From IMG/VR virus record IMGVR_UViG_3300025133_000020: a DNA stretch of 64,000 nucleotides, one strand, 5' to 3'. A model generated the notes under the pieces. It was not told the origin of the DNA and searched no databases. It saw only the letters and a program-made list of their open reading frames with translations. Below, piece by piece: positions 2,770 to 55,736 of this stretch; the first letter of the stretch is position 1, and each line of letters opens with the position of its first letter. Made by a program: the position numbers and the translations under genes. Source of the DNA: a virus (taxonomy: Duplodnaviria; Caudoviricetes).

Positions 2770-3732
2770 ATGTCTTTTTTAATTCCCGATATTCTGGAGT
2801 CATTTCTTGGTGAACCAAGGAAGCACCACGAGAGTAATGGTCAAATAGCTTTTGACTGTCCTGTTTGTGCTGAAGAGAACGGTTTAAGAGAAGGTGATGG
2901 TAAAGGTAATCTTGAGGTAAACTACGTAGAAGGTGTTTATAAATGCTGGGTATGTAGTGGTACTCATGGTACTCACGGTACGATAGGTAAACTGATATAT
3001 CGTCACGGTACGAAAGAGAATCTGAAGGATTATCAATTGATAAAGCCTGATTATGAGTACCTTAGAATGGAAAGGGATAATCAGGAAGTCGCAAGCGTCA
3101 TAGTAACGCTACCTGAAGGTTATAAGCGCCTAACTGACTGCAATCAATTCCAATGGCGCTATGCTGATGCTATGAGATATCTCAAGGATAGGGGTATCAC
3201 AAAAGAAATGATTGATTATTACGATATAGGCATGACTACGGTTGGCAAGTATCACGATAGAATCATCATACCATCCTACGATAAGAATGATAGGTTGAAT
3301 TACTACATAGCAAGGACGTTCGAGAAATGGGCTAGACCTAAGTACTTGAATCCCGAAGCTGAAAAGATGGGTGTTATATTCAATGAGGGTAAGCTAAATC
3401 TGGATGCTACCATATACCTTGTTGAGGGTGCGTTTGACCATATTGTGATACCTAATTCAATTCCATTATTAGGTAAGATATTATCACCAGAGTTATGGCT
3501 TTATCTACAGGATGCCAGAGCCAATATCGTGATAGTATTGGATGCAGACGCTTTTGCAGATGCCAAGGAGATATACAGGAAACTGAATAGTGGTAATTTG
3601 AGGGGTAGGGTTATAATATGTGAAATACCGAATGATAATGACCCTAGTAGAATCTTTGAGTTGTTAGGGTCTAACGGGATACAAAAACTATTAAGAAATT
3701 GGTGTATGGTGCCGTCTGAGAGTGAATTATGA
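2770..3732 (+). CDS. DNA primase (Zn finger + TOPRIM)
   Basis: CPVC...CWVC zinc finger; YLVEGAFD and IVLDADA TOPRIM motifs. Confidence 0.85.
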   Translation: MSFLIPDILESFLGEPRKHHESNGQIAFDCPVCAEENGLREGDGKGNLEVNYVEGVYKCWVCSGTHGTHGTIGKLIYRHGTKENLKDYQLIKPDYEYLRMERDNQEVASVIVTLPEGYKRLTDCNQFQWRYADAMRYLKDRGITKEMIDYYDIGMTTVGKYHDRIIIPSYDKNDRLNYYIARTFEKWARPKYLNPEAEKMGVIFNEGKLNLDATIYLVEGAFDHIVIPNSIPLLGKILSPELWLYLQDARANIVIVLDADAFADAKEIYRKLNSGNLRGRVIICEIPNDNDPSRIFELLGSNGIQKLLRNWCMVPSESEL

Positions 3733-4188
3733 TTGCATAAACTGACGTAGTTGGTCAGCACCATCAAGGTCTGGTAACATACATAAATCACCAAGCTCAT
3801 TACTTAAACATTCGTAGCTACCGATACTTTTCAGTTTATCCCAGATGGTATCCATTTTAGGGTTCATTCTACGACCTTTACCTGAATATAGATGACCGAA
3901 TTCTGAAATGAATTTTTGGTACACCTTAACCCCTAGACCAGCCCCTTGTGCGTTTTTCGCTAATGCTATATTTGGTTGATATATCACACCACCTAATGCT
4001 TTGATACCTAAAACACCTACCGAATTACCACCAACCCTAATAGTTAATTCTGGTGTATTTCCATCACCATCTAATAATTCAATATCTTCCCACTTAACGT
4101 TCTGTAGATTATCAAACTCACCACCTTCATCGGGTAGGCTTGGAATATCTAAAGCTTCTCTTAATTTAAGTCTAATGTCGGTTTTCAT
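3727..4188 (-). CDS. hypothetical protein, GNAT-like fold possible, LRE-type N-terminal leader
   Basis: AQGAGLGVKVY resembles the acetyl-CoA binding motif; N-terminus MKTDIRLKLREAL. Confidence 0.45.
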   Translation of the reverse strand: MKTDIRLKLREALDIPSLPDEGGEFDNLQNVKWEDIELLDGDGNTPELTIRVGGNSVGVLGIKALGGVIYQPNIALAKNAQGAGLGVKVYQKFISEFGHLYSGKGRRMNPKMDTIWDKLKSIGSYECLSNELGDLCMLPDLDGADQLRQFMQS

Positions 4189-4439
4189 AGGTACTGTTTC
4201 TCGATAATGGATAGTACGGCACCTAAAGCACCATTCCTATCACCAAAAGTTCCCGCATGCTTATCCACCAAGTAATTGATAGCTTTCTCAACATCTTCTC
4301 GTACATTTGAGTATCGTAAGTCTTGAGCTACTTCATATTCACCCTCACCAACAATCTTAAATTCATCGTTAGTAGCGTCACCCTGAACATGGGCATATTC
4401 AAGGTCTTCACGTAACTTTTCTTTTAGTGATTTATCCAT
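4185..4439 (-). CDS. hypothetical protein with LRE-type leader
   Basis: MDKSLKEKLREDLE; TATTTATA motif on the minus strand at 4445-4452. Confidence 0.55.
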   Translation of the reverse strand: MDKSLKEKLREDLEYAHVQGDATNDEFKIVGEGEYEVAQDLRYSNVREDVEKAINYLVDKHAGTFGDRNGALGAVLSIIEKQYL

Positions 4440-4500
4440 TTGAATATAAATATAGAGGTTTAGGTTGAAACTGTGGATAAAATAAAGTATATTCGCTTAT

Positions 4501-9047: not shown

Positions 9048-9884
9048 ATGGGCAAATATGTCAACTATAATGAAGATAAGACCATAAGTCATTACTTCAA
9101 AGATTTAAGAAAAGAAGACCTATTAACGAAAGAGGAAGAATTCTCATTAGCGTTAAGAATTAAGGATGGGGATACGAGAGCCATTGATAAACTGGCAAAG
9201 TCTAATCTAAAATTCGTAGTATCAATCGCCAAGGAATATCAAGGTAATGGATTACCATTGAGTGACCTGATAAGTGAGGGTAATTACGGGTTAATTAAAG
9301 CAGCGCATAAGTTTGACCCTAACAAGGGGTTCAGATTTATTTCATACGCTGTATGGTGGATACGTCAAGCAATCATTCAATCGTTGAATGACCATTCACG
9401 AACCGTGAGACTACCATCCAATGTTATAAACAAGATTACAAGCGTTAAGAAAGCTCTGGAAGCCTTCGAACAGATTAATGAGCGAGAGCCAGTATTTGGT
9501 GAGGTTATAAACGAGGACGGTGCCAAATTGGATATCAGTGTAGATAGTGGGTATTGTAGTTCACTAAACGATAGAGCTTGGGACGGTGAGGGTGACGAGT
9601 TGGGTGATATGTTGGAAGATGATGAAACTTACGAAGAAACCAAGTACACAGTAGATGATAGACTTAAAAACACACTTGAGGGTACGCTGAATAAGTTAAC
9701 CAAACGAGAGCGTGATATTGTGAAGTGTTATTTCGGTATCGACACAGAATGTGAACCGATGACGTTAGAAGCGATTGGAGACAAATATGAACTCACTAAA
9801 GAGCGTGTAAGACAGATAAAGGAGAAGGGAATTAGAAAGCTAAGACACAATGCTGGAGGTCTATTTTCGGTGATGAATGAGTAG
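9048..9884 (+). CDS. RNA polymerase sigma70-family factor
   Basis: SNLKFVVSIAKEY, DLISEGNYGL, FISYAVWWIRQ, TLEAIG..LTKERVRQI (regions 2 and 4). Confidence 0.92.
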   Translation: MGKYVNYNEDKTISHYFKDLRKEDLLTKEEEFSLALRIKDGDTRAIDKLAKSNLKFVVSIAKEYQGNGLPLSDLISEGNYGLIKAAHKFDPNKGFRFISYAVWWIRQAIIQSLNDHSRTVRLPSNVINKITSVKKALEAFEQINEREPVFGEVINEDGAKLDISVDSGYCSSLNDRAWDGEGDELGDMLEDDETYEETKYTVDDRLKNTLEGTLNKLTKRERDIVKCYFGIDTECEPMTLEAIGDKYELTKERVRQIKEKGIRKLRHNAGGLFSVMNE

Positions 9885-12577: not shown

Positions 12578-13013
12578 TCCGCATACCTATCAGGATAGTA
12601 TCCCACGTGGTACACTTATAGGTACGGTGAATAGTCTTGGTGAGTTAATTCTACACTTACACGTGGAAGATGCTCGACTGATATTGACCGATTTATTGGA
12701 CTATGAACTTATAGTAGACAGTATTATGCCAGCGTATGAGAGTCGAGACTCCATACAACAAAAGGCTATAACCATCAACCTATCCAAGATAGCTGAATTA
12801 CAATTTCAAAGTGAGAACTGTGAGGAACAGAAACTCAAATTGGAAGGTTTAATTGCCAATATACGGGAAATCGGTGGGTTTAAAGACCTTACGATAGAGA
12901 ATGCGAAGGATGTCATAAAGAAGGAAAAGATAAAGAAGGGGTTAGCCTTTGGTGGTGGCACCTTGGGTGGTGTCGGATTAGGAATTCTAATCGGTTTTTT
13001 CTTAGCCAAGTAA
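12480..13013 (+). CDS. secreted/membrane protein with C-terminal Gly-rich TM (spanin partner candidate)
   Basis: N-terminal signal-like segment, coiled coil, C-terminal GGGTLGGVGLGILIGFF. Confidence 0.45.
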   Translation: MGRVLMLIAFLMMPLLASTQSISKGELRETKSNPHTYQDSIPRGTLIGTVNSLGELILHLHVEDARLILTDLLDYELIVDSIMPAYESRDSIQQKAITINLSKIAELQFQSENCEEQKLKLEGLIANIREIGGFKDLTIENAKDVIKKEKIKKGLAFGGGTLGGVGLGILIGFFLAK

Positions 13014-13023
13014 ATCAAAACTT

Positions 13024-13050
13024 AAAGCCTCTACCAAAGAGGCTTTTTTT
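13024..13050 (+). terminator. intrinsic terminator
   Basis: AAAGCCTCT-accaa-AGAGGCTTT followed by a T run. Confidence 0.85.
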
Positions 13051-13064
13051 GTGGGTTTGTAGCC

Positions 13065-13072
13065 TATTTATA
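13065..13072 (+). promoter_or_regulatory. TATTTATA motif, probable phage late promoter (representative copy)
   Basis: The same octamer lies a few to about 25 nt before starts at 9019, 9893, 14627, 25501, 35841, 40746, 42659, 46497, 51487, 52343, and on the minus strand at 4445 and 30424. Confidence 0.7.
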
Positions 13073-13091
13073 TGAGAGTGATAATAAAACT

Positions 13092-13343
13092 ATGGATAAT
13101 AGAAAGGAGAGAATATTAGAAGAGCTTACACAGTCCGACAAGATTGAAGTTAAGAAGTATGTACTTACATCTAGAGATTTGGAAGAGAAAATCAACAAGA
13201 TAGTCAAAGCCAAGCTGAAGAATAATAAGGAGATGGATGACCAAGTAGTTCAGATAACCAAAAACGTACTAACACAACTATTCAAAGCCCTATGGGTTAA
13301 GAGGTCGTTCTGGAAGTCAACCTTATCTAATAGAGCCACATAA
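13092..13343 (+). CDS. hypothetical protein (probable head-associated)
   Basis: TATTTATA upstream; ILEE near the N-terminus. Confidence 0.6.
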   Translation: MDNRKERILEELTQSDKIEVKKYVLTSRDLEEKINKIVKAKLKNNKEMDDQVVQITKNVLTQLFKALWVKRSFWKSTLSNRAT

Positions 13344-14599
13344 TGAAGAAGATTAGAATCACAGAGGAACAAGCGGATATGTTAACCAAATTACCACAAA
13401 AAAAAGTGGTGAAGGTTACCCCACATCAGTTTAATATCATACGAGAAAGTCTTGGTGATAAGATTGATGCTAACTTCAAAAAGGAGTTTAGGGGTATTAA
13501 GACTGAAGGTGCCTTGAATGAGAGTCCAACCGTAGAGATATTAGAACTACTTAGAGCAGTAATAGATTTCATACTTAATGAGTTGAATAATAACACCAGT
13601 GCTGGGCTAGACCCAATATTTGTGGAGATGGGTGTAACCCGTGGAGAGATATTCACACTATTAAGTGACTTAGGTCTAATAGGAATGACATTTTATCAAT
13701 ACACATATAACCAGAAGATTCAAGCGATTAAAGGCACTATTAAGACGATATACAGAGAACTTAGAGGTAAAGGAGATGTGAATAAAGTTGGTGCTGAAAG
13801 TACAGGTGCCGCAGGTGCAAGTGGTCAATATACTGCTGGAATGGCAATGAAGCCAAGTAGTAGTTATAACCCTGAATTATCCCCTGTCTCTCAAATGGGT
13901 GCCGATATAGAAACTGAACCATTACTGGTTAGTTCTGATTCAGCTTTTCAAGAGTTAATGGGTCTTGAGGTTGGAACCGAAAGAGAATACTTCACGGTTG
14001 CTGGTGTTGAGGATAAAAGAGTTGACGAGAACGGTGATACCATCTTTTTAGTTAAATTACACGATAAGGATGGTAACCTTAGTAACGCTCATCTATTATA
14101 CAGATTTAAAGCTGCCGAACACAGAGCATTCCTTCAATTCAATAGAGATTTTGATGGTTTAGTTGATGCGTCTGAGGCTATGGCTGAGGTGTATCATGAT
14201 AACCTAAATACGATAGGTAAGGCTCTAACCAAACAAGTAATGGTAACCGATGAATCTACAACCTCTGGTGGGATGTCGGCTGCTGGCGGCTCAATGGAAT
14301 TCGATGCGAACGCTTTAGGTGGTAAGATAGGTCAGGATGTTGGTGGTATGGTACAGAATATAGATGCTAACGATACTAATATGTTAACCAGTAGGGAAGG
14401 TAGTAAACCTAAAGGTATCCGTGAAGTAGATAATATGAAGGATGCGGCATATCCAGATGGTGGTTTTGTGGAGATAGATGACTGTGCCAAATTGAATAAT
14501 AACAAGGAAGCCGAAAATGGTGGATGTAGTCAAGGTGACGATGGTGTAGTAAGCGTCAAAAAGACTAAAAATTCCGTTGTTTCCAACCAAAAAGGTTAA
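13343..14599 (+). CDS. hypothetical protein (probable internal head protein)
   Basis: 418 aa in a late operon; multiple [IL]xE motifs. Confidence 0.55.
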   Translation: MKKIRITEEQADMLTKLPQKKVVKVTPHQFNIIRESLGDKIDANFKKEFRGIKTEGALNESPTVEILELLRAVIDFILNELNNNTSAGLDPIFVEMGVTRGEIFTLLSDLGLIGMTFYQYTYNQKIQAIKGTIKTIYRELRGKGDVNKVGAESTGAAGASGQYTAGMAMKPSSSYNPELSPVSQMGADIETEPLLVSSDSAFQELMGLEVGTEREYFTVAGVEDKRVDENGDTIFLVKLHDKDGNLSNAHLLYRFKAAEHRAFLQFNRDFDGLVDASEAMAEVYHDNLNTIGKALTKQVMVTDESTTSGGMSAAGGSMEFDANALGGKIGQDVGGMVQNIDANDTNMLTSREGSKPKGIREVDNMKDAAYPDGGFVEIDDCAKLNNNKEAENGGCSQGDDGVVSVKKTKNSVVSNQKG

Positions 14600-14650
14600 T
14601 AACGCAAACTTTATTGATTGCAATGATATTTATAGTTAAAGCAAGTTTAA

Positions 14651-16066
14651 ATGGATAAGAAAGACATACTAGCTCAATTACGTACTGAAGCCGCAATTCC
14701 AGGTGTAGCGCAAACCAAAAAGGTTCAGCGTGAAGCTAAAAAACAGAACGACAAGGCTTATAAGGATATTGAGAAGGAAATGAAGGCTTATGAGAAGGAC
14801 TCTACCCAAAGTGGTAAAGATTCCATCGAGCCTGTCATGGATATATACGCTGACAGTGACGAAGATACGTATCACCAAGATATGGAGATTCTGAATGGTC
14901 AAGAAATGCTTAATTACGATGGTACCCCATCAAAGCAATTTGCCGAAAGAGCTAGAATGTCTCTTGAAGGTGCCGCAGAGATGGGTAATAGTCCAGAGTG
15001 GGCTAACGTTGTGGCTAAAGGTCAAGGTGGTGACCCAAAATTCGGTAAGAAACTGGTTGACAGAATTAAAGACTCTAAGAAGAAGAGAGATGATGCAACA
15101 CCAGCTCTTGACCAATTTGGAGATGATATCGAAGAAAAGAACGTAGGTATCAAGGGTACTAAAGATGAAATAAAACCAAAACTTAAAACCAAAAAGGTTG
15201 CGGTAGAAACAAAAGAAACTAAAAAGGAGACTATTATGGAAACTAAGAAAATTAAAAGATTGAAATTCAAGCAAACTATTGGTGGTCTTGAGAAAGCATT
15301 GTCAATTATCCCAGAAAGCTACAAAGTAGACAACAAGGTATTTGAAATGACTGATGGTAATGAGAACTACCGATTCAGATGGGAAGGTGATACCGAAGGT
15401 AACGCTGTAACTCTTAAGGCTTATGACGATACTTTAGTTGAGTCTGATAAGTCTAGAATGGAAGCTCTTATGGGCTTCAAGTCTGACTTAGGAATCCCTA
15501 CATCAGCTCAAAGACTATCTGAGAATGATATGTTCTTGACTATGCTTGGTAAAGCAAAGGAGTTGAATGAAGAAAAAGAAGAAACAGCAGAAGTTATTGC
15601 TGAAGCTACAGAAGCAACACCTGAAGTAGTAACAGAAGCAGTAGAAGCGGTTACTGAAGGTACAGAGGCTGTAAAAAAAAAAGTCTTAACTGAAATCTCT
15701 GACGAGAAGAAAAAAGAACACGCACGTGACCAGCATCACCACAGCGACTTCCCAGATGGGTCTAAGTCAAACTGTTGTGGTGCTTCTTTTGTTGATGGAG
15801 ACAGATGTTCCAAATGTAAAGAACACGCTTCCCCAGCTAAAAACGAAGGTACTTCAATAACTGAAGCACCTCTAGCTGCCCCCAAGGGATTCAAATTTGA
15901 ACCAGATGAGCATGAGCATGACCCACATGCGCCAGAAGAATTTGAACGAGACCCAAGAACTCACAGCCAAACAATGGGGGATGATAGGCGTGAATATGCT
16001 CAAGAAATGGTTAAAAGGGGTAAATGGAGTAAAGAGCAAGCTTATGAGTATATAATGGGGGCATAA
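14651..16066 (+). CDS. hypothetical protein (probable internal head/core protein)
   Basis: Charged 471 aa; TATTTATA upstream; LRTE, LTE, ITE motifs. Confidence 0.55.
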   Translation: MDKKDILAQLRTEAAIPGVAQTKKVQREAKKQNDKAYKDIEKEMKAYEKDSTQSGKDSIEPVMDIYADSDEDTYHQDMEILNGQEMLNYDGTPSKQFAERARMSLEGAAEMGNSPEWANVVAKGQGGDPKFGKKLVDRIKDSKKKRDDATPALDQFGDDIEEKNVGIKGTKDEIKPKLKTKKVAVETKETKKETIMETKKIKRLKFKQTIGGLEKALSIIPESYKVDNKVFEMTDGNENYRFRWEGDTEGNAVTLKAYDDTLVESDKSRMEALMGFKSDLGIPTSAQRLSENDMFLTMLGKAKELNEEKEETAEVIAEATEATPEVVTEAVEAVTEGTEAVKKKVLTEISDEKKKEHARDQHHHSDFPDGSKSNCCGASFVDGDRCSKCKEHASPAKNEGTSITEAPLAAPKGFKFEPDEHEHDPHAPEEFERDPRTHSQTMGDDRREYAQEMVKRGKWSKEQAYEYIMGA

Positions 16067-16076
16067 TAAATTTATA

Positions 16077-16814
16077 ATGTCAAAAGAAATGATAACAGTA
16101 GCCTTAAGGAAGCATCTCACTGAAAATCTGATTTTGGAAGAACTAGATGCTGAAGAAGAGTATTATAAAAAACTAGAGGATAGGTACTATAACGACATTG
16201 ATGGGTACGACCCAGATGAAGATGATGACTTTAGACGTTTCAAAGACGATGCACCAATTTATCTCGTGAGGAAAATGGCAATTAATAAGATGTTTCGTGA
16301 ATATGAGAAGGATTATCTTAAGGCGTTTACCCACATTTTTGGTGATGATGAGGGTAATAGGATATTAAAGGATATTAATCAGGGTATTAATCAGGGTAGG
16401 CACGTTGTGGCATTTACGTCACCTGTGATAGAAGCCCGCAAGGTATCGACAACAAATTTAGATTCTGCTGAGTTAGCTGGTCACCATTATGATGATGATG
16501 GATTTAACGGGGATATTAATATAGATGTTGAGCTTAATGGGTTTTATAAATTAAACATCATCGATAAACTAGAATCAGATATAAAAAAATATGAGGAAGG
16601 GGAAAAGAGGTCATTCATGGTTAAGACGGAATTACCAAATATTAAAACTTTTCTAAATAAATTCACACCTCGCGAGGTATATAATTTTCAAGTATTGTTT
16701 GGTAATAAACCATCAATAATTAAACAAACATCGCTAGTTAATTTAATCAATGATTTACCATTGGATACACTTAAACAGATTATTGATATACGTGTCACAA
16801 ATAAACAAGGCTAA
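16077..16814 (+). CDS. hypothetical protein with leader ending LTENLILEE
   Basis: Long ORF in the late block. Confidence 0.55.
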   Translation: MSKEMITVALRKHLTENLILEELDAEEEYYKKLEDRYYNDIDGYDPDEDDDFRRFKDDAPIYLVRKMAINKMFREYEKDYLKAFTHIFGDDEGNRILKDINQGINQGRHVVAFTSPVIEARKVSTTNLDSAELAGHHYDDDGFNGDINIDVELNGFYKLNIIDKLESDIKKYEEGEKRSFMVKTELPNIKTFLNKFTPREVYNFQVLFGNKPSIIKQTSLVNLINDLPLDTLKQIIDIRVTNKQG

Positions 16815-17380
16815 TGAGAAGACGAGACAAATCAAAGAATATAACTAAAGCTAATCTATTGGCTGAACAACGTTATCTTGAATCTAAGGGGTTGCTTAAA
16901 GAAGATGACCTATCAGGTGAATACTCATTTAAAACTGATGGTGGTTATATGGTTGCAGGTGCAGTTAGAATGAAGCCAGAACAACTAAGTCTACAGATTG
17001 GCAATAACAAGTATTTTTCTTTCTGGGAAGGTGAATTCTCAAGCGGTGGGGTTAAAATTGTTGGTGGAGCCGATGAACAATCTCAAGCGTGGTTAGACCA
17101 AGCTACTGAAGTATATAATGCTGCCGAAAGAAAATCTTACCCAGAAAAGTTTGCTGAAAGAGAGGGTTCCAGAAAAATCCTTATCAAGAGTAAAGACGAT
17201 TGGGCACGAGAAGCGACCAACCTTAAAAGCAAGGGGTACACGTATAAATCACAACATGAAATAAAACCAGAAAGAGGTTTTGTTGCTATGCATAATTACG
17301 CTAACTATCCGTATGAAGTTATCGTTGACGATAACGCTAAGACTATAGATTTTGGTGACCATACGATTAAACAGAATTAA
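16814..17380 (+). CDS. hypothetical protein with conserved 30-aa N-terminal leader
   Basis: MRRRDKSKNITKANLLAEQRYLESKGLLKE, nearly identical to the leader of 17912. Confidence 0.6.
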   Translation: MRRRDKSKNITKANLLAEQRYLESKGLLKEDDLSGEYSFKTDGGYMVAGAVRMKPEQLSLQIGNNKYFSFWEGEFSSGGVKIVGGADEQSQAWLDQATEVYNAAERKSYPEKFAEREGSRKILIKSKDDWAREATNLKSKGYTYKSQHEIKPERGFVAMHNYANYPYEVIVDDNAKTIDFGDHTIKQN

Positions 17381-17384
17381 ACTA

Positions 17385-17909
17385 ATGGAAAGAGGGAATA
17401 GAGCAAGAAGAATTGAAAAAGCTAATAGATTAGCCGAAGAACGTCACCTTAATAGGGGTGTAATAGTAGAGAACGAATTCAGTCATAATGGTATGGCACC
17501 CTTCATGGACGTACATAAGGATGGTACTTTCAGTGATGCTGATAAAGAACCAGTTGAAGATGAGGTGGCTGTTAATGAGGATGTGGTAAACGAGATTGAT
17601 ATGGATATTATCAACGCTGCTGGTGATTGGATTACTGGTGGTGGTATGGTAAGTGTCGGTGGTGAATCAGTTCCAAGGAACTTAGCAACATTAGCTATGA
17701 GTATTATGCCAGCCGCAGCAGCAGCAGGTTTCGTAGCAACATTTTGGAGTGAAATTAAAGCTAAGGTTGGTGGTAAGGGTGATATAGAAGAACTTTCTCC
17801 AGCCGCAAAAGATGCTGAAAAGAGTAGACCACCAAGACAACAACATAATGAGCGCCCATCTAAACCAAAAGAAGATAGGGCTAATAATTCAAGTAAAGAA
17901 AGAAGGTAA
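17385..17909 (+). CDS. hypothetical protein with related N-terminal leader
   Basis: MERGNRARRIEKANRLAEERHLNRGVIVENE. Confidence 0.55.
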   Translation: MERGNRARRIEKANRLAEERHLNRGVIVENEFSHNGMAPFMDVHKDGTFSDADKEPVEDEVAVNEDVVNEIDMDIINAAGDWITGGGMVSVGGESVPRNLATLAMSIMPAAAAAGFVATFWSEIKAKVGGKGDIEELSPAAKDAEKSRPPRQQHNERPSKPKEDRANNSSKERR

Positions 17910-17911
17910 TC

Positions 17912-40770: not shown

Positions 40771-41427
40771 ATGGCTAGGAAACAGAAAACGATACACTAC
40801 ATCTACAAGACTACTTGTGAAGTGACAAACAGATACTATGTTGGGATGCATAGTACCAATAATCTGGAAGATGGTTATATGGGAAGTGGCAAACGATTGA
40901 GAGCTTCAATCAGGAAACATGGTGAAGACAACCACACCAAAGAAATAATAGCTTTCTACGATACAAGAGAGTTATTAGCGGAAGCGGAGAAGGAAGTTAT
41001 CACAGATGATATGGTTGATGACAAAAATTGTATGAATCTGATGGGTGGTGGGAACGGTGGCTTCATCAGTGATGAGCAACAGAGGTATCGTTCTGAGTGT
41101 GGTGGTAAAGCATTACATGAGAAAATGAGAACCGATAAAGAGTTTAGAGAGTTACAGGGTGAAAAGTTATCTAAATCAGTTAAACAGGCTCATGTTGAAG
41201 GTAAGATGAAAACTTGGAAGGATAATTACGATTGGACTGGTAAATCACATTCTGAAGAGACTAAACGTAAGATGAGTGACACTAATAAAGGTAAGGGTAC
41301 TGGTGAAGCCAATTCTCAATATGGTACCTGCTGGATAACCAAAGATGGTTCCAACAAGAAAGTAAAGAAATCTGAATTGGATGTCCATATAACCCAAGGT
41401 TGGGAAAAAGGCAGAAAGATAAATTAA
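40771..41427 (+). CDS. GIY-YIG (Seg-like) homing endonuclease with NUMOD3
   Basis: HYIYKTT...YYVGMHST..GYMGSG; HSEETKRKMS. Confidence 0.85.
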   Translation: MARKQKTIHYIYKTTCEVTNRYYVGMHSTNNLEDGYMGSGKRLRASIRKHGEDNHTKEIIAFYDTRELLAEAEKEVITDDMVDDKNCMNLMGGGNGGFISDEQQRYRSECGGKALHEKMRTDKEFRELQGEKLSKSVKQAHVEGKMKTWKDNYDWTGKSHSEETKRKMSDTNKGKGTGEANSQYGTCWITKDGSNKKVKKSELDVHITQGWEKGRKIN

Positions 41428-42683: not shown

Positions 42684-43328
42684 ATGGCAAGAAAAGAAAA
42701 AAAGTACCACTACATATACAAAACGACTAATTTACTTAGTGGTAGATATTACATAGGAATGCATAGCACCGATAACCTTGACGATGGTTATATGGGTTCT
42801 GGAACAAGACTTAGGCGTTCACTTAATAAACATGGTGAGGAAAATCATAAGGTCGAGTTCTTAGAGTTCCTTGATACTCGGAAAGAGTTGAAGGAACGGG
42901 AAGCTGAAATAGTTAACCTTAATGAGGTAGCCAAAGTGGACTGTATGAATCTGAAGGTGGGTGGTGAAGGTGGGTTATCGAGTGAAGAACACAAGGTAGC
43001 ATTTATAAATGCTGGTATTGTGGGTAGAGAATCCTTTAGGGATAAACTAACAAATGATAAGGAATTCCGTAAGAGACATATAGATATGTTTACTGGGATG
43101 GTAAAGGAACGTCACGCTTCTGGTGAAGTTAATTACAATACGTTTGAAGGTAAAACGCATACAGAGGAAACTAAAGAGAAGATGAGGAAGTCTAAGAACG
43201 TAGGTAAAGCTAACTCACAATACGGCACTTGTTGGATAATCAGAGATGGTGATAATAAGAAGATAAATAAAGAAGACCTTAACGAATATCTTGATAAAGG
43301 TTGGGTTAAGGGTCGTAAAATGAAATAA
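42684..43328 (+). CDS. GIY-YIG (Seg-like) homing endonuclease with NUMOD3
   Basis: Paralog of 40771. Confidence 0.85.
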   Translation: MARKEKKYHYIYKTTNLLSGRYYIGMHSTDNLDDGYMGSGTRLRRSLNKHGEENHKVEFLEFLDTRKELKEREAEIVNLNEVAKVDCMNLKVGGEGGLSSEEHKVAFINAGIVGRESFRDKLTNDKEFRKRHIDMFTGMVKERHASGEVNYNTFEGKTHTEETKEKMRKSKNVGKANSQYGTCWIIRDGDNKKINKEDLNEYLDKGWVKGRKMK

Positions 43329-44543: not shown

Positions 44544-44618
44544 CCCGATATGGTGTAATGGCTAGCACGACACTCTCATAAGGTGTACGACACAGTTCGA
44601 TTCTGTGTATCGGGACCA
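44544..44618 (+). tRNA. tRNA with CAT anticodon (elongator Met or Ile2)
   Basis: Canonical cloverleaf with encoded CCA. Confidence 0.88.
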
Positions 44619-45351: not shown

Positions 45352-45662
45352 GCAAAATCAAAGACTTCTTAATAGAGTACAAGAGTACCATAAACATACC
45401 AGCACTTATTGTGTTGGTCGTCTTATTCGATTCAGTTATAATACTCACTGAGCAGAACGTGAAACTAATGCTTGGATTCGACCTTTTCCTTTTCGTAGGG
45501 ACAATCGTCAATTATATTGGTTGGAAACTAAAGAATAGGAATGAGGAAGAGATAGAAGAAATGGTATGTAGCAAATGTGGTAAGACACCAGTTTACATAG
45601 CGTGTCCTGACCATTGTGAAGAGTGCTACATTAAGTACGAAGTAAACGAAAAAGTACTATGA
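45348..45662 (+). CDS. two-TM protein with C-terminal Zn ribbon
   Basis: Hydrophobic pair; CSKC..CPDHCEEC. Confidence 0.55.
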   Translation: MSKIKDFLIEYKSTINIPALIVLVVLFDSVIILTEQNVKLMLGFDLFLFVGTIVNYIGWKLKNRNEEEIEEMVCSKCGKTPVYIACPDHCEECYIKYEVNEKVL

Positions 45663-45964
45663 CCGAAGAAGAAAGAAAAAAAGGTTTGAACCATATGAAA
45701 GAGGTTCGAAGAAAGGTTCAAGAAAAATGGGAATCTACTGGGTTCCTAGATGGACTGGAAGGGCACATTAAAGAGAATATGACTATCTTAATGGAGAACC
45801 AAGAAAACGCTGTGATAAGCGAGAACCCAACTGGTATGACAAAAGAATGGGATGGGGTGTATTTACCTATCGTAAAACATGTATTCAAGGAACAACTGGC
45901 TGACCAGATACACACACCACTTGCGATACATGTGGCTAAACAATTATCAGGTCATACTTTTTAA
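45659..45964 (+). CDS. stand-alone homolog of the major capsid protein N-terminal region
   Basis: KWESTGFLDGLEGHIKENMTILMENQ...YLPIVKHVF resembles gp23-type N-termini. Confidence 0.55.
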   Translation: MTEEERKKGLNHMKEVRRKVQEKWESTGFLDGLEGHIKENMTILMENQENAVISENPTGMTKEWDGVYLPIVKHVFKEQLADQIHTPLAIHVAKQLSGHTF

Positions 45965-46507: not shown

Positions 46508-47152
46508 ATGAGGAAACAAAAGAAATATCATTACATCTATAAGACTACTTGTAGTGTAACAAATAGATACTATGTTGGAATGCATAGTACAGATAATTTA
46601 GATGATGGATATATGGGTAGTGGTAAACGCCTGTGGCACTCATTTAACTATCATGGAAAGGATAATCATTCAGTAGAGATATTGGAGTATTATGATACCA
46701 GAAAGGGGTTGAGAGAACGAGAGGCTGAGTTGGTTAATGAAGACCTATTGAAAGAAGATTTATGTATGAATCTAAAGACAGGTGGTGATGGTGGGTTCGT
46801 TAATTTATCCGCATGTACTAAAGGTGGTCACGCCAGAGCTAAATCTACTAACCGCATAATGTGGGATGAAAATCCAGAGAAATATTTTGAAATCTTTTCT
46901 ACTAGAATGAAAAAAACGTGGGAAGACCCAGAATATAGAGAGAAGATGTTGAAGGTTATTAATTGGGAAGGTAGAGAACATAGCGAAGAAACCAAACAGA
47001 AGATGTCTGAAACCAAAAAAGGTACTGGCACTGGTAAAACTAACTCACAGTATGGTACTTGTTGGATAACCAAGGATGGCTACAATAAGAAGATAAAGAA
47101 AGAAGAGTTAAACGAATATATTGAGAATAGTTGGGTTAAAGGGAGAAAATGA
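46508..47152 (+). CDS. GIY-YIG (Seg-like) homing endonuclease with NUMOD3
   Basis: Third paralog of 40771/42684. Confidence 0.85.
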   Translation: MRKQKKYHYIYKTTCSVTNRYYVGMHSTDNLDDGYMGSGKRLWHSFNYHGKDNHSVEILEYYDTRKGLREREAELVNEDLLKEDLCMNLKTGGDGGFVNLSACTKGGHARAKSTNRIMWDENPEKYFEIFSTRMKKTWEDPEYREKMLKVINWEGREHSEETKQKMSETKKGTGTGKTNSQYGTCWITKDGYNKKIKKEELNEYIENSWVKGRK

Positions 47153-48259: not shown

Positions 48260-48502
48260 ATGAAGAACAACTACATTACCCCAGAAGATATTAATAACGC
48301 CACAGATTCAGAATTTGTTGAGCTTATTACCCGTATGGCGAATAATTGCGCCAAGACGTTCCGTTTCCCAAGTATCACTCAACGTACCATTAGCACTAAT
48401 AATGCTATCAATTCCGCATTATGGGCGCAGCATCTTGTTGGTGATAGTAACCCATTCGAGTTCTTTAATGATATAATGAAAAGGTCAATCATAGCATCAT
48501 GA
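48260..48502 (+). CDS. hypothetical protein
   Basis: TTGACA promoter directly upstream. Confidence 0.5.
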   Translation: MKNNYITPEDINNATDSEFVELITRMANNCAKTFRFPSITQRTISTNNAINSALWAQHLVGDSNPFEFFNDIMKRSIIAS

Positions 48503-49059
48503 AGAAGAAAATACACATCGGTTGCGATGACAGACCATCAGAGACCACCGATATGGTGGAATCAATCCTAACCAACCTTAAGGTGCCATATGAAATCCTT
48601 GAGGAAACCGAGGAAGATGTAACAATAGAATACACACCACCCAAACCAACCCATACACACTCAGAGAGAGTGGAGAAAATGATTTATACGAAATGGGAAG
48701 GTAGTGGTTTCCTTGCTGGGTTGGAAGACGATATGACCAGACCAATGGCTGAGGTGTTCACAGAAGTGAGTCAATATCTATTATTACACACATCAGATGA
48801 AGATAGGGCTTCGTGGTCACACATAATATTCCCAACGGTTAGAAGGGTATTCACAGCTATAGCTAAGAGTGGTGATACTAGTAATTTCGATATGAACGTA
48901 TTCATACAGGAGTACTCGAAACGTCACGAAGAATTAGATAAGAAATTAAAGAAGGACCCACCAACCAGTTACTATGCTATAGATTTAGAGGCTGAAAAGT
49001 GTGCTATCATAAGCGATGAATTAATCAAGTTTTTCCTAGATGGAGTGCCCGAAGAATGA
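48499..49059 (+). CDS. protein containing a capsid-N-terminus-like segment
   Basis: KWEGSGFLAGLE...IIFPTVRRVF; paralogous to 45659. Confidence 0.5.
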   Translation: MKKKIHIGCDDRPSETTDMVESILTNLKVPYEILEETEEDVTIEYTPPKPTHTHSERVEKMIYTKWEGSGFLAGLEDDMTRPMAEVFTEVSQYLLLHTSDEDRASWSHIIFPTVRRVFTAIAKSGDTSNFDMNVFIQEYSKRHEELDKKLKKDPPTSYYAIDLEAEKCAIISDELIKFFLDGVPEE

Positions 49060-49810: not shown

Positions 49811-50190
49811 GCGTGAAAAGATTATTATGGCTTGATGATGTACGTGACCCGTTCCGTAATGATTGGCTTGTATTCTCACCCATTGAAGACCCGTATGACG
49901 TGGTTTGGGTTAAATCCTATAAGGAGTTTGTTGCTTGGATAACCGAGAACGGCTTACCTGACGGGATTTGTTTTGACCATGATTTAGCCGACTTCTACTA
50001 TGACCCATCACGATACCAAGAGACTGTTATATGGCATGAGAAGACAGGTATGGACTGCGCTAAGTGGTTGGTCGAATACTGTATGGATAATGATAAACCT
50101 TTACCTAGATGGAACATTCAAAGCGCCAACGATGTGGGTAAGGAGAATATTCAGAGATATTTAGTTAATTACCTTAAGAGTTGTAACTGA
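49807..50190 (+). CDS. cyclic-phosphate-processing receiver-like domain protein
   Basis: LWLDDVRDP, ICFDHDL, TGMDCAKWL, IQSANDVG. Confidence 0.65.
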   Translation: MSVKRLLWLDDVRDPFRNDWLVFSPIEDPYDVVWVKSYKEFVAWITENGLPDGICFDHDLADFYYDPSRYQETVIWHEKTGMDCAKWLVEYCMDNDKPLPRWNIQSANDVGKENIQRYLVNYLKSCN

Positions 50191-50209
50191 TAGGTGTATA
50201 TTTATATGC

Positions 50210-50536
50210 ATGTACGAATACAGAGCAAAGATTTTAGAAGTATATGACGGTGATACCGTAACAGCAGAAATTGACTTGGGTTTCAAAATAAAGTTCGTTG
50301 AAAAGATACGACTATATGGTATTAACACACCTGAAGTGAGGGGTAAGGAGCGTGAGGATGGTTTAGTATCCAGAGATGCCCTTAGAGACCGTATCCTAGG
50401 TGAGTATGTTACAATCAAAACCCAGCGAGATAAGAAGGGTAAGTATGGTAGATATATAGGTGAGATATTCATCGGTGAAGAGAATATAAACGATTGGTTG
50501 GTGACCGAGGGGTTAGCTGAATATAGAGATTACTAA
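50210..50536 (+). CDS. thermonuclease (SNase-like)
   Basis: YDGDTV, IRLYGINTPE, KYGRYIG. Confidence 0.85.
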   Translation: MYEYRAKILEVYDGDTVTAEIDLGFKIKFVEKIRLYGINTPEVRGKEREDGLVSRDALRDRILGEYVTIKTQRDKKGKYGRYIGEIFIGEENINDWLVTEGLAEYRDY

Positions 50537-50537
50537 T

Positions 50538-51119
50538 ATGGGATTATCAATAAGCGAATTACTTAACGAGGTGATAGAAAACCAATCATACCTATTGTAT
50601 CATGGTTCACCACAGGAGATTAAAAACTTCACAGATGAATTTGTGGGCGCTGAAGAGGCTACTGACCAAGAAGGACCAGGAATTTACTTCACCACATCAT
50701 ATGATGATGCGTTGGGGTATGCTGAGGGTGATGGTGGTTATGTTTATACGGTAAGGGTGAATCCAAGAGTATTATTTGACGAATCAGAAGAAATCACTAT
50801 TGATAGGGACTTATTGGTGAAGTTGGTATTAATGTCAGATGATTGGGAGACTGCCGCTAGTAATTGGAGTGAGGATGCTAGAACTGGTGTTGAAATGTTA
50901 GTTGATAGTGCTTTCGAGTACAATGATAACGAGAAGGATGTTCTACTACAGATTTGGATTGAAGCTTACAGGTATGAGGGTGTTGATTACATTAGAAACT
51001 GTGTTAAACTGGGTATTGATGGTGTTATCGTTAACAGAGAAGGTAACAGGAAACACGTAATCATATACAATCCCGACATCATTGAAGTTAGAGAGGTTGA
51101 AAGAGTATCTAGAGATTAA
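50538..51119 (+). CDS. ADP-ribosyltransferase-fold protein
   Basis: LYHGS...GPGIYFTTS...ALGYA pattern. Confidence 0.5.
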   Translation: MGLSISELLNEVIENQSYLLYHGSPQEIKNFTDEFVGAEEATDQEGPGIYFTTSYDDALGYAEGDGGYVYTVRVNPRVLFDESEEITIDRDLLVKLVLMSDDWETAASNWSEDARTGVEMLVDSAFEYNDNEKDVLLQIWIEAYRYEGVDYIRNCVKLGIDGVIVNREGNRKHVIIYNPDIIEVREVERVSRD

Positions 51120-51156
51120 AGTTGCCAGTCTCAAATAAATCCCGTATATTTGTAAA

Positions 51157-51480
51157 ATGATAAAACACTTCAAGAGAATTGGTAGGTTAAACAACTTAGA
51201 CCCTGCACCTATATCTGAAAGGGGTATGAAGTTAATGGAAGAGGCTGGAGAATTAGCCAAAGAGATTAACAGAACCACAGGTAGAAAAAAGGGTACCCAC
51301 CCCACCAAAGAGGTTAGACATGACTTATTATCCGAGGCGGCTGATACGATTCAATGTGTATTCTCAATCATTCACCAATTCAATGAGGAAAATAAATTCA
51401 ATGCACCTGAAATCACATATCAGGAGTTGGAAGATAAAGTTGGGGTTAAGAATGATAAATGGGTTAACTCTCTCGATTAA
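51157..51480 (+). CDS. MazG-like nucleotide pyrophosphohydrolase
   Basis: KLMEEAGELA..SEAADTIQC. Confidence 0.75.
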   Translation: MIKHFKRIGRLNNLDPAPISERGMKLMEEAGELAKEINRTTGRKKGTHPTKEVRHDLLSEAADTIQCVFSIIHQFNEENKFNAPEITYQELEDKVGVKNDKWVNSLD

Positions 51481-51497
51481 GGTGCATATTTATATGC

Positions 51498-51761
51498 ATG
51501 AGGGATGATATCAGATTAGCATTACGTGAAGCGTTATCGATTAAAGGGGTAGTCTACGAAGTAGTTAAACCAGACGGTCACGATAAGCCAATATACATCA
51601 GTAAGGAAGGTATATTAGGTATGAATGGTGAGGCAATCTCTTGGAAAGAGATTAACCAATATGAAGCATTGTCTCAAAGTCCCGATTTAGGAAAAGCGGT
51701 GGAGAAATTCAATTCTCAATTCGAAAAGAACCGTAGAGAGAAATTCAAAATGCATAACTAA
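51498..51761 (+). CDS. hypothetical protein with LRE leader
   Basis: MRDDIRLALREAL; TATTTATA upstream. Confidence 0.6.
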   Translation: MRDDIRLALREALSIKGVVYEVVKPDGHDKPIYISKEGILGMNGEAISWKEINQYEALSQSPDLGKAVEKFNSQFEKNRREKFKMHN

Positions 51762-51800
51762 CCCCTTGTTATTCTAAAAAATAAAGTGTATCTTTGCAAC

Positions 51801-52337
51801 ATGAGTAGATTCACACTTAAGCCTATATCCAAATATCAGGATGAGTTAGCGGCAACCTTTTCCGAATCGTGTATAGCTACAAACGTAGCGGAATACGCTA
51901 GAAGAGACCAGAGTGACGTTAATAAGATTGCTTATGACATCTACAACGGTAAGGTAGCTGAATATATGGTATTCAATCATCTATTAAAGAATGGTAAGAG
52001 TGCCACACCACCAGATGTTATGATATATGAGAAGAATGAGAAATCGTTTGATGCTGATATTACGTCTGGTGAGATACAGATTCACGTTAAGAGTTGTCAA
52101 GCTGATACACCATTTGGTCATTCATGGGTATTTCAACCACAGGACTCATTGGTTAGTAACCCAACCGAGAATGATTTTCTAGCGCTATGTGTTATTGGTG
52201 AAGAGTCCTATATGTATTTGGTTAAAGCTATGGATATGGACTTTAATACTCCGATAAAAAGTAATTTGAATAAGAAAGTGATATATGAGGATTTTGTTAA
52301 GACTTATACTCACATGAAAAAGAATAAGGTCATATAA
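51801..52337 (+). CDS. restriction-endonuclease-like (PD-(D/E)XK) protein
   Basis: GKVAEY...FDADI..IHVKS. Confidence 0.5.
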   Translation: MSRFTLKPISKYQDELAATFSESCIATNVAEYARRDQSDVNKIAYDIYNGKVAEYMVFNHLLKNGKSATPPDVMIYEKNEKSFDADITSGEIQIHVKSCQADTPFGHSWVFQPQDSLVSNPTENDFLALCVIGEESYMYLVKAMDMDFNTPIKSNLNKKVIYEDFVKTYTHMKKNKVI

Positions 52338-52354
52338 GTATCTATTTATAGAGT

Positions 52355-52786
52355 ATGGAAGATAAACTTAAAGATAAGCTAAGAGAAGCGTTAGAAGGGG
52401 AAGTAAAAGTCCTATACTCTGCGGTTGTATTGACTGAAGAGGCTCATAGCAAATTAGTTACCACATTACAGAGCGATATACCTGAAGGGTGGAAACTATT
52501 CGCCCATCACATGACAATCATATTCGGACAAGGATTACCAGAGGAACAGAAAGTTAACTTAGGTAAGACGGTCAAGTTGACTGCCACACACCTTGGACAA
52601 TCAGGTATGGCTATAGCAGTAGGTGTTACTGGGTACCCATCCAATAACGAGAAACCGCACATTACAGTAGCGGTCAACGTAGCTGAAGGTGGTAAACCCT
52701 TCATGTCCAACAAGATAGAAGAATGGTTACCATTATCACAACCGATAGAGTTGAGTGGTGTGGTAACAGAAATCAAAGCAAACTAA
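52355..52786 (+). CDS. 2H phosphoesterase (tRNA ligase CPDase-like)
   Basis: HHMTI and PHITV motifs; leader MEDKLKDKLREALE. Confidence 0.75.
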   Translation: MEDKLKDKLREALEGEVKVLYSAVVLTEEAHSKLVTTLQSDIPEGWKLFAHHMTIIFGQGLPEEQKVNLGKTVKLTATHLGQSGMAIAVGVTGYPSNNEKPHITVAVNVAEGGKPFMSNKIEEWLPLSQPIELSGVVTEIKAN

Positions 52787-53771: not shown

Positions 53772-54248
53772 ATGGCTAAAGAATTAGAGATTGAACGAAA
53801 GTTCTTGCTGAAGAAAACACCAGAGGGTATGTTCTTCGATATGCGTTCTGATATCGTACAGTATTATTTACCACAAGATGAGAATGGTTATACTGTTAGG
53901 GTCAGGGAAGCGGAACAACATGGAACTAAGAAATATTTCCTAACCAAGAAGAAGTATATCAGTCCAACGGTTAACGAAGAGATTGAGAAGCAAATAGATG
54001 GTGCTGAATTTCACTACCATAGGAAGAAAGCGTTAACAGTCTTATCCAAGGTGAGGTATTTCCACACTATAGATGGTTTGACTTGGGAAGTTGACGTATT
54101 CAATGGGATGGACTTAATCATAGCTGAAATAGAGTTAGAGTCAGAGGATTACAAATTAGAGATACCAGAAGTGATTACTGATGTATTAATAAAGGAAGTA
54201 TCTGGTATCAAAGAGTTTTATAATCAACAATTATCTTCACCTGTATAA
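53772..54248 (+). CDS. CYTH-domain triphosphatase
   Basis: EIERKFL, WEVDVF, AEIEL. Confidence 0.8.
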   Translation: MAKELEIERKFLLKKTPEGMFFDMRSDIVQYYLPQDENGYTVRVREAEQHGTKKYFLTKKKYISPTVNEEIEKQIDGAEFHYHRKKALTVLSKVRYFHTIDGLTWEVDVFNGMDLIIAEIELESEDYKLEIPEVITDVLIKEVSGIKEFYNQQLSSPV

Positions 54249-55120
54249 TGGCTATAGAGGAACGACTAACAACATATAAATCTGAAACTTGCTGGCAATA
54301 CGACATAAGGGTTAAGAATCGAGAGGAAGACCTTGTATTGGCAAATATGACGCAGCAAGAGGCTGCGCAATTAAGAGTAAGTGATTTCGAATTAAATTTT
54401 GAAGAGAAGGATGCCGTTTTTGATGAAGCTAAGGCTTTCATCGAACGACACGAATGGTTGGGTAGAATGGGTCTTTATCCCACCCACATTTTCACCGCTA
54501 GATACAATGGTATGTTGGCTGGTGTGGTCATCATGGACATGCCAAACGCATTCTCCAAGATGTTAGGTGAGGGAACCAAAAAACTAGAACGACTTATTGG
54601 TAGAGGGGCTTGCGTATCATGGTCTCCAAAGAACTTAGCCTCAGCATTAATCGGATACTCAACAAAGTGGATGGTTAAGAATACACCGTATCGATTATTT
54701 ACGGCATACTCTGATTCTGAAGCTGGTGAAGTGGGTACGATATACCAAGCATGTAACTTCTACTATCTGGGTGCCAAATTCGGTGCCAAGGCTCAATATA
54801 AGAATGAGAATGGTAGATGGGTGAATGATAGATACTTCAGAAGTAGAAGCGTATATAAGAGGATGGCAAAGAAGCTCGGAATTGATTGGTTAGACGCTTG
54901 GCAAGAGCGAGATAGAGTCATGTTCGACCTGATGCCTGAAAGTGTCTCAGAAGCCATTAAAACAGCTTCTAAGGCGTATATGGCTGAGTGTGAGAAGAGG
55001 GAACTACCATTGAAGGGTAAATACGCTTACGTTTTGGGTAGAGGGAAGAAGGATACTAAGAGGTTGAGAAAGATATTCGAAGAAAGAAATAAGACGTATC
55101 CGTATCCTAAGCGAGGGTGA
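54248..55120 (+). CDS. Mom-like/GNAT DNA-modification enzyme
   Basis: FTAYSDSEAGEVGTIYQACNFYYLG resembles Mom-like acetyltransferases. Confidence 0.55.
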   Translation: MAIEERLTTYKSETCWQYDIRVKNREEDLVLANMTQQEAAQLRVSDFELNFEEKDAVFDEAKAFIERHEWLGRMGLYPTHIFTARYNGMLAGVVIMDMPNAFSKMLGEGTKKLERLIGRGACVSWSPKNLASALIGYSTKWMVKNTPYRLFTAYSDSEAGEVGTIYQACNFYYLGAKFGAKAQYKNENGRWVNDRYFRSRSVYKRMAKKLGIDWLDAWQERDRVMFDLMPESVSEAIKTASKAYMAECEKRELPLKGKYAYVLGRGKKDTKRLRKIFEERNKTYPYPKRG

Positions 55121-55169
55121 GAGAGTATTTATATTTGTAGGAGTCAAATAAAACTCTTACCTTTGCAAA

Positions 55170-55736
55170 ATGGTTAAAGATAGATTAAGACTTTTATTGG
55201 AAGAGGCGGGTGAAATCACACGATTGGAATGTTTTGATTTTGATGGTACATTGATTGACACACCACTATCAGACGTTGGAATCCCAATGTGGGAAAAAGC
55301 TACTGGGGAAAAGTTTCCTTATGAAGGGTGGTGGGGTCAGATTGAATCCTTGGATACTAACATCTTTGAGATGCCCGTTATCCCACAGGTTGCTGAAGCA
55401 TACAAGAAGGCTAAAGCTAGACCTGATACTATGGTAATCATGGTTACAGGTAGACAAAACACACCAGAGTTAACGAGCGCAGTTAAGGGTATCCTAGATT
55501 CCAAAGGAATGACTTTTGATGCGTATAGATTTAATACTGGTGGTGATACGGGTGAGATAAAACGTAACCAGTTGAATGTTATATTAGGTGCTAATCTTAA
55601 TATCAATGAAGTTATTCTTTACGATGATAGGGAGAAACACTTCGAAGATTTCGAAGCGTGGGGTGCAGAGTTGCTTGAGGGTGATTTCGTCAAATCGTTC
55701 CAATTAGTTCGTATTCCAAGTACTGGTCGTTTCTAG
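55170..55736 (+). CDS. HAD phosphatase (Swiss Army Knife RNA-repair-like)
   Basis: FDFDGTLIDTP..WW..ESL, VTGR, YDDR. Confidence 0.7.
   Translation: MVKDRLRLLLEEAGEITRLECFDFDGTLIDTPLSDVGIPMWEKATGEKFPYEGWWGQIESLDTNIFEMPVIPQVAEAYKKAKARPDTMVIMVTGRQNTPELTSAVKGILDSKGMTFDAYRFNTGGDTGEIKRNQLNVILGANLNINEVILYDDREKHFEDFEAWGAELLEGDFVKSFQLVRIPSTGRF

Follow-up and report, generated by a model that had tools for sequence, protein, structure and literature searches.

The internal proteins IPI, IPII and IPIII of phage T4 carry an N-terminal capsid-targeting sequence (CTS) which, like the propeptide of Alt, is removed by the prohead protease gp21 (Mullaney and Black 1996, as relayed in PMC3012670 and PMC5694885), and head proteases of both the T4 and the phiKZ type cut after Glu (PMC3012670, PMC5694885). 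Among the phiKZ-like phages, phiKZ gp175 and SPN3US gp245 are processed ejection or inner-body proteins, cut after [A/S/G]-x-E, and SPN3US gp53 and gp54 have an identical 15-residue N-terminus (PMC5694885). In the polyvalent proteins that phages and conjugative elements encode, ART-PolyVal and other enzymatic domains are believed to enter the cell together with the DNA and to pre-empt host defence (Iyer et al. 2017, as summarised in PMC7824862), and phages also encode RNA-repair sets, such as T4 Pnk/Rnl and the kinase-CPDase and HAD 'Swiss Army Knife' modules (Burroughs and Aravind, as summarised in PMC7824862). Here we describe a 64,000-nucleotide stretch of an uncultured marine phage genome (IMG/VR record IMGVR_UViG_3300025133_000020; the window hereafter), in which small proteins with unrelated bodies, one of them an RNA end-healing enzyme, begin with a shared leader peptide that is a candidate capsid-targeting propeptide.

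Five proteins of the window share the consensus M-x3-[IL]-[RK]-x2-L-R-E-x-L over residues 1-13, with L-R-E at residues 9-11 in 5/5. Four are of unassigned function: an 84-residue protein (4185-4439, minus strand; leader MDKSLKEKLREDL, 17.9 bits), a 153-residue protein (3727-4188, minus strand; MKTDIRLKLREAL, 17.6 bits), a 173-residue protein (33996-34517, plus strand; MKQRIKQLLREQL, 19.8 bits) and an 87-residue protein (51498-51761, plus strand; MRDDIRLALREAL, 17.1 bits). The fifth is a 2H phosphoesterase, a CPDase-like RNA end-healing enzyme (52355-52786, plus strand; MEDKLKDKLREAL, 19.1 bits), whose domain begins at residue 21; it has the two 2H H-x-T/S motifs, in the peptides FAHHMTII and EKPHIT, and matches PF08302 at 16.6 bits, under the 23-bit cut-off, while PF08302 is a precomputed annotation on many of its homologues. 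The scores come from a position-specific scoring matrix (PSSM) trained on leaders of relatives only, with those of the window kept out of the training, which was used instead of a strict regular expression that missed most window leaders. At the same offset the five score 17-20 bits, while the best of 1008 internal windows reaches 9.5 bits and none reaches 10; within the first 16 residues, LRE is present in 5-6 proteins where 0.6 would be expected. The bodies behind these leaders have no Pfam or PHROG family in common, and the 173-residue protein matched none in either collection. The leader itself is a basic, amphipathic, helix-like peptide. Its conserved L, R and L are written with different synonymous codons in the five genes (TTA/CTA/CTG; AGA/CGT/AGG), and it is thus conserved as a peptide rather than as a DNA repeat or an mRNA element. 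A sequence-only reading of this DNA had quoted nine such N-termini as one set. All nine are present at the starts and on the strands it gave, and five of them form this tight family; those of a CCA-adding enzyme, a NUDIX hydrolase and a HAD phosphatase are looser, and that of an ART-like protein is indistinguishable from chance.

The genes of the window phage lack Shine-Dalgarno sequences and stand behind Bacteroidota-style promoter boxes, and the window encodes about 21 tRNA genes, a tmRNA and an RpoD-like sigma factor of its own. Its DNA is also present on ENA and JGI contigs of 109-130 kb, and a 212.8-kb contig is on record for one of its proteins. The nearest cultured phages are Flavobacterium phage immuto, Microcystis phage Mel-JY01 and Rhodothermus phage RM378; among cultured phages we found no near or distant DNA relative for positions 13000-20000 of the window, and tblastn with the 153-residue and 2H proteins gave no match. 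Relatives from IMG/VR reach 254-368 kb, and the main comparison genomes were G003 (152 kb, about 64% protein identity to the window and collinear with it), G006 (368 kb, rated complete) and the more distant G001 (254 kb), with simple picks of open reading frames (ORFs) as gene calls. Orthologues of the 84-residue protein keep the leader in G003 and in L032/L033. Orthologues of the 153-residue protein in ten relatives keep M..[FIL][IV]KK.L[RK]E.L, with TATTTAT upstream of each, and the 87-residue protein has a G003 orthologue with the N-terminus MKDSIRNKLREAI. Orthologues with a conserved leader are just 29-40% identical to one another.

The leaders are not parts of the enzyme folds, because leaderless homologues exist and others carry unrelated leader types. 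The CCA-adding enzyme of G006 begins directly at the conserved MELPKDIR; in the window and in G003, 14 extra residues and a short acidic linker precede the Met that starts the G006 enzyme, and the G006 HAD orthologue likewise has no leader. The 2H domain is arranged as leader plus 2H in the window, as leader plus P-loop kinase-2H in G003 and as kinase-2H without leader in G006. In G001, a cluster of eight genes (CCA, 2H, HAD-like and five neighbours) uses another leader, M[NST]LLRE[YC][IV].E[IL]L, and a further contig has M..KLILE[RS]W.R[YF]LNE on a 2H gene and its neighbour. Among 120 2H homologues, 42 have no extension, 14 are fusions and 62 have 12-45 extra residues, and these extensions comprise at least five unrelated leader families. 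[LIVM]-x-E occurs in 35/45 distinct extensions of 12-45 residues against a background of 0.34, and in most of the extensions with this motif a Glu lies 6-9 residues ahead of the first conserved residue of the domain; such constant placement among leaders of unrelated sequence would be expected of a cleavage site. Conservation of the leaders as part of the enzyme folds, which by the sequence-only reading's own account would have told against it, was checked on these homologues: the leaders are phage-lineage-specific additions, absent from many of them. We also considered concerted evolution of the leaders within a genome. Compared by hand, leaders of the window and G003 agree at 10/13 positions within a genome and at 8-9/13 between orthologues, too small a difference to uphold the idea; clear differences are seen only in the leaders of the distant G001 and G002.

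The protease that would cut such leaders is found in the relatives. Peptidase_S77, the T4 gp21 type, is encoded by G001, G004, G005 and G006 and on a head-module contig (L193/L194), all relatives at least 75% complete encode a T4 gp21-type protease, and G001 and G006 also have a gp23-type capsid protein. Because of this protease and capsid protein we regard the window phage, by sequence, as a distant relative of T4. The position of the T4 gp23 cleavage site, FLTE|A, aligns with LLTE|S in the capsid protein of G006 and with ILRE|Q in that of G001, whose LRE is the same as in the G001 leaders. In 76/76 IMG/VR capsid proteins and in 119 further ones from the protein collection, all of a clade with at least 8000 capsid-protein relatives, [LIM][LIM]xE stands at the T4-aligned position, 14-15 residues before FPIVRRVF. 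Since the capsid proteins carry this motif at the T4 cleavage position, the clade protease very likely has T4-like specificity, and the claim that the leaders end in the motif of the head protease holds: the [L/I/V]-x-E of the leaders matches the clade capsid proteins at that position. Strict co-variation of the P2 residue between capsid site and leaders was rejected (in G006, LLTE in the capsid protein and LLRE in the leaders). In many relatives the capsid gene is followed immediately by leader ORFs that begin MK..IKKLLRE.L. In the window, two ORFs (45659-45964, 101 residues; 48499-49059, 186 residues) correspond to a stand-alone N-terminal propeptide region of a gp23-type capsid protein; both reach the start of the mature part (PIVKHVF / PTVRRVF), and the first retains I-S-E at the aligned cleavage position. 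They may act as decoys or in assembly, or be what is left of former genes.

Two promoter classes separate cleanly, an early, host-like class and a late-type class, [AC]TATTTA[TA]A. The early class combines an upstream TTTG, a GTCAA-like spacer element and TA(T/C)CTTTGTA, often just 4 nt before the ATG, with the consensus TTTG-N19-TA(T/C)CTTTGTA in 41 units of G003 and 14 of the window. It matches the Bacteroidota sigma-A consensus, -33 TTTG / -7 TAnnTTTG; only the early class has both sigma-A boxes at about 19-nt spacing, and the TATTTATA class is without the -33 TTTG box. Across 80 head-module loci, TATTTA[TA] precedes 33% of genes and TAnnTTTG 7%, and in G006 TATTTA[TA] is concentrated in the structural region at 60-220 kb, with the early class dominating the small-gene regions. 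The late-type box also precedes the neck, baseplate and tail genes of the window phage itself and, as CTATTTATAA, the terminase, portal and other head genes of the cultured phage immuto (L197, MW353176.1 112710-143456). Among 40 leader genes in all genomes examined, a late-type box lies within 45 nt of 25 and an early box within 45 nt of one, and 14 have neither (odds ratio 6.2, p = 3e-8). The comparison thus supports the proposal that TATTTA(T/A) is a late promoter: it marks structural genes and is linked to leader genes.

Within the window, the genes starting at 4439, 51498 and 52355 and the ART operon starting at 50210 have [TC]ATATTTATA or TCTATTTATA 3-7 nt before the ATG, in a stretch otherwise governed by the early class. 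The box TATATTTATA (4445-4454, minus strand) lies 7 nt before the ATG at 4439; CATATTTATA (51485-51494, plus strand) lies 3 nt before that at 51498, making the transcript nearly leaderless; TCTATTTATA (52341-52350, plus strand) lies 4 nt before that at 52355; and the box of the ART operon occupies 50197-50206 (plus strand). The genes at 4188 and 34514 are the second of their late-type-box units, the former overlapping the 84-residue gene by ATGA. A composite promoter, early-type TATATTTGT followed by TATTTAC (33972-33991, plus strand), ends 4 nt before the ATG at 33996, and TATTTAC precedes the NUDIX gene (21913-21921, plus strand; 26 nt upstream of 21947). The proximal promoter of the HAD gene is an early-type box, TACCTTTG (55158-55165, plus strand). 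TATTTA thus stands upstream of most of the nine quoted genes, directly or in their operon, as had been claimed.

Taken together, we consider with modest confidence, a little above even, that the leaders are capsid-targeting propeptides that work like the CTS of the T4 internal proteins, a reading that rests on analogy and on several independent comparative lines. Loading of the leader proteins into the capsid is probable because the tag ends in a T4-type protease cut site and the genes have the promoter type of structural genes. Leader genes would be transcribed from the particle-gene promoter class [AC]TATTTA[TA]A, which lacks the upstream TTTG of the early class; the basic amphipathic leader would bring the protein into the assembling prohead core; a gp21-type (Peptidase_S77) protease would then cut after [L/I/V]-x-E, here the L-R-E ending at residue 11; and the freed mature protein would stay in the head and could exit with the DNA. 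Core binding, cleavage, presence in the virion and injection are steps that we infer from the T4 analogy. The sequence-only reading had proposed a packaged and injected enzyme set with a common leader; its leader additions, cut-site motif and late promoter hold up, with a gp21-type protease encoded in the clade; its single leader class and its inclusion of the ART protein do not, and the HAD protein is a weaker case.

The likeness to the T4 CTS extends to a short N-terminal peptide (about 6-13 residues) on unrelated, fast-changing proteins that ends in [L/I]-x-E, to a lineage with a gp21-type protease and a gp23-type capsid protein bearing the same site (here seen in relatives), and to cargo that includes host-directed enzymes, T4 Alt being an ADP-ribosyltransferase. 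Unlike T4, the window phage has several leader types per genome and a putative cargo that includes RNA end-healing and tRNA enzymes. Its leader genes are dispersed between genes of the early type, and each has a late-type promoter to itself, placed a few bases ahead of the start codon; its system is also known from sequence alone. With the phiKZ-like phages it would share the pattern of many head-internal proteins cut after Glu, and of N-terminal propeptides common to otherwise diverged paralogues. Those phages differ in using an S80 rather than an S77 protease, with a small rather than an aliphatic P3 residue, belong to another lineage, and usually have longer propeptides. Polyvalent proteins resemble the window set in enzymatic domains such as ART-PolyVal; in them, however, these domains are fused in one giant injected protein, whereas the window has separate small proteins, each with a leader.

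Several observations weigh against the capsid-targeting interpretation. The window consensus has no similarity to the T4 CTS, and the relation would be one of function, not of descent. [LIV]-x-E is a short motif, frequent by chance (30/110 N-termini, against 18 expected); [LI]-x-E occurs in 27% of N-termini and in 17% of internal windows. Several window leader proteins are small and acidic and lie among early-type small genes outside the head module, and the 33996 and HAD (55170) genes carry early-type boxes. The CCA-adding enzyme has a plain cytoplasmic task, tRNA maturation, because about 20 phage tRNAs need CCA addition: only tRNA-Met (44544-44618), one of the roughly 21 phage tRNA genes, encodes its 3' CCA. 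Finally, in the window and about 79 kb upstream of it we came upon no protease, scaffold or capsid gene of the window phage; the upstream stretch crosses tail-fibre, RNR, gp32, helicase, baseplate and sheath genes and stops short of the head module. A capsid gene considered as the phage's own copy (L128) lies on other contigs, and five IMG/VR contigs from sister samples showed no overlap with the contig of the window phage.

A looser pattern, L-R-x2-3-L-[LIRT]-E, is found on the CCA, NUDIX and HAD proteins, with PSSM scores of just 6.4, 2.4 and 2.1 bits; it occurs at five N-termini against 0.2 expected, is scarce inside proteins, and was found again on the G003 orthologues of CCA and HAD. The CCA-adding tRNA nucleotidyltransferase (34514-35689, plus strand) has a 14-residue leader of this kind, MSIRAQLRKELLRE, and the linker GEERTS before its ancestral start MELEV. 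It possesses both the PolyA_pol head domain and the RNA-binding domain (PF01743, 131.8 bits, from residue 43; PF12627, 27.2 bits; phrog_2244, 195 bits). The NUDIX hydrolase (21947-22366, plus strand) begins with MDLRENLRRMLIE and the HAD_SAK_1 phosphatase (55170-55736, plus strand) with the weak leader MVKDRLRLLLEE. The stand-alone ART-PolyVal ADP-ribosyltransferase (50538-51119, plus strand; PF18760, 43.9 bits) is the second gene behind its late-type box, and its N-terminus, MGLSISELLNE, scores 1.7 bits and is statistically not a leader. For the ART, the HAD and possibly the NUDIX protein, the balance is even between a true leader and chance resemblance, in an AT-rich genome where small helical N-termini are often rich in Lys, Leu and Glu. 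Scores of 1.7-2.4 bits lie in the background range, the high frequency of [LI]-x-E given above favours chance, and so does the early-type proximal promoter of the HAD gene. Arguing the other way, the NUDIX leader is almost identical to that of the G003 CCA orthologue, which starts MSVRENLRGRLLIE; the HAD orthologue of G003, starting MENEVLNNLRKRLTE, and the HAD-like gene of G001 carry the leaders of those genomes; and the ART gene lies in a late-type unit, its LLNE being a variant of the capsid site of relatives. On the reading we favour, the five tight leaders are portable N-terminal propeptides, as are, probably, the looser leaders of CCA and NUDIX. In G003, the closest relative, an insertion of about 870 nt divides the CCA gene (L082, G003 49925-52173) into two ORFs; the window gene is intact.

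A protein-level address other than the capsid, whether a docking or oligomerisation helix on a hub, an element recognised in proteolysis or by an adaptor, or a membrane-binding amphipathic helix, is an improbable alternative that nevertheless has some appeal, the leader being basic, amphipathic and helix-like. The window also encodes DnaJ (27097-28143), a 143-residue ORF, ClpP (28643-29338) and, just after them, a tmRNA (29389-29750; Rfam, 85.5 bits), whose unusually long tag, ...GEYLLREVFEGELALAA, contains LLRE. G003 and G006 have a tmRNA at the same place with different tags in which LLRE is not conserved, and we took its presence in the window tag as a coincidence rather than as a link to the leaders. 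That at least five unrelated leader types hold a Glu 6-9 residues before the domain is more easily explained by a cut site than by a binding helix; a role in head assembly is suggested by the link to structural-gene promoters and, in relatives, by the location next to capsid genes; and a membrane-binding helix sits poorly with cargo made up of soluble nucleic-acid enzymes.

Somewhat less probable still is that the leaders are removable propeptides, or the proteins core- or scaffold-like and degraded or expelled at maturation, with no active enzyme delivered to the next host. The scaffold proteins of the clade do begin leader-like, with M-x5-8-[IV][IV][KR]E[AS]LL. The cargo, however, includes complete enzymes without a role in assembly (2H, CCA and a GNAT-like protein of G001), and sister phages have the same enzymes leaderless, so that the leader adds location, not activity. 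It is very improbable that the shared N-termini reflect only a constraint on (near-)leaderless late mRNAs or a recent exchange of promoter-plus-start DNA cassettes, without a function in the protein: a box 3-7 nt before the ATG does make the 5' coding region of window leader genes the ribosome landing site, and A-rich Lys and Glu codons do predominate, but the synonymous codon differences, the persistence of the leader among orthologues of low identity and its occurrence in relatives behind untranslated leaders of 15-25 nt all speak for the peptide.

If the leaders are capsid-targeting propeptides, the 2H RNA end-healing enzyme would be the best cargo candidate, and its injection is plausible because it combines a tight leader with a late box. 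The case for injection is weaker for the CCA-adding enzyme, and weak for the HAD and ART proteins. The CCA operon carries both promoter types, and its enzyme may have two places of work, the cell, where it would mature phage tRNAs without an encoded CCA, and the head. The system resembles the known phage RNA-repair sets in bringing together a 2H CPDase, a P-loop kinase, a HAD phosphatase and a CCA-adding enzyme with many phage tRNAs; the known sets are made after infection. More speculatively, interchangeable propeptides and a minimal late-promoter cassette could form a plug-in system that makes any small enzyme capsid cargo, virion-delivered RNA repair included. Tentatively, too, such a system might extend across a very large clade of T4-related giant phages, uncultured and living in marine and fresh waters, with cargo that here includes the 2H CPDase and the CCA enzyme. 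To our knowledge virion delivery of RNA-repair enzymes has no published description, and we found none in the literature searched.

Other shared N-termini occur in the same phage. A 418-residue protein (13343-14599, plus strand) has a leader of a different type, MKKIRITEEQ (M-K-K-x-I-x-[IV]-T-E-[SEA]-Q), which recurs as MKKRIRVRESQL and MKRRVKITESQF on two ORFs inserted in the tail operon of the window phage (L192 8937 and 11708), each with its own TATTTAT box, and is also found in G003, G006, L114, L157 and L170. The paralogous genes 16814-17380 and 17912-18766 (together 16814-18766, plus strand) encode a common 30-residue N-terminal module, MRRRDK.KNI...NLLAEQRYLESKG, before unrelated bodies, and residues 1-30 alone match G003 and G006 proteins. 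Two N-termini of immuto, MKKSQLRQIIKEAL and MKKSQIVKAVQEVL, and a pair of the form M(AD/E)NF(N/D)L(R/K).FL(T/V)ENKLT resemble leaders.

Further observations concern transcription and the tRNA region. The early box, TA..TTTG(T/C)A, ends exactly 4 nt before the ATG of many small genes between 45006 and 58814 of the window (for example 45019, 47189, 49481, 51157, 51801, 55170, 56368 and 58814) and in 16 units of G003, so that these mRNAs should be leaderless or nearly so. One of the two box classes may be recognised by an RpoD-like sigma factor with regions 1.2, 2 and 4 (9048-9884), which itself lies behind a TATTTATA box and is conserved in G003, G006 and G001. Three GIY-YIG-like paralogues and an HNH gene lie among the tRNA genes (40771-41427, 42684-43328, 46508-47152 and 63419-63883), and a third promoter form, TT(T/G)ACTTTT-N12-TATATTTA(T/A), precedes 40771, 42684 and 63419; the region appears to have been shaped by homing endonucleases. 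An early-type promoter at 31174 is closely followed by a tRNA with the anticodon CUA, of the amber suppressor type (31568-31642; called Pyl by ARAGORN), which hints at a possible reassignment or suppression of TAG late in infection.

If these leaders are capsid-loading tags, the injected arsenal of thousands of uncultured giant phages would become predictable from sequence, and would be larger and richer in enzymes than that of T4. Delivery of the RNA-repair enzymes in the virion, if true, would allow damaged tRNA ends to be repaired, or defences of the anticodon-nuclease type to be pre-empted, before phage gene expression, and RNA repair delivered by the virion would thereby have its first example. 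The leader and its 10-bp promoter would also make up a small cassette that could be transferred to load foreign proteins into the heads of Bacteroidota phages, and immuto, a cultured phage with the same promoter and similar N-termini, makes the idea directly testable. An RNA end-healing enzyme delivered in the virion would open a further level of conflict between phages and the host defences that cut tRNA.

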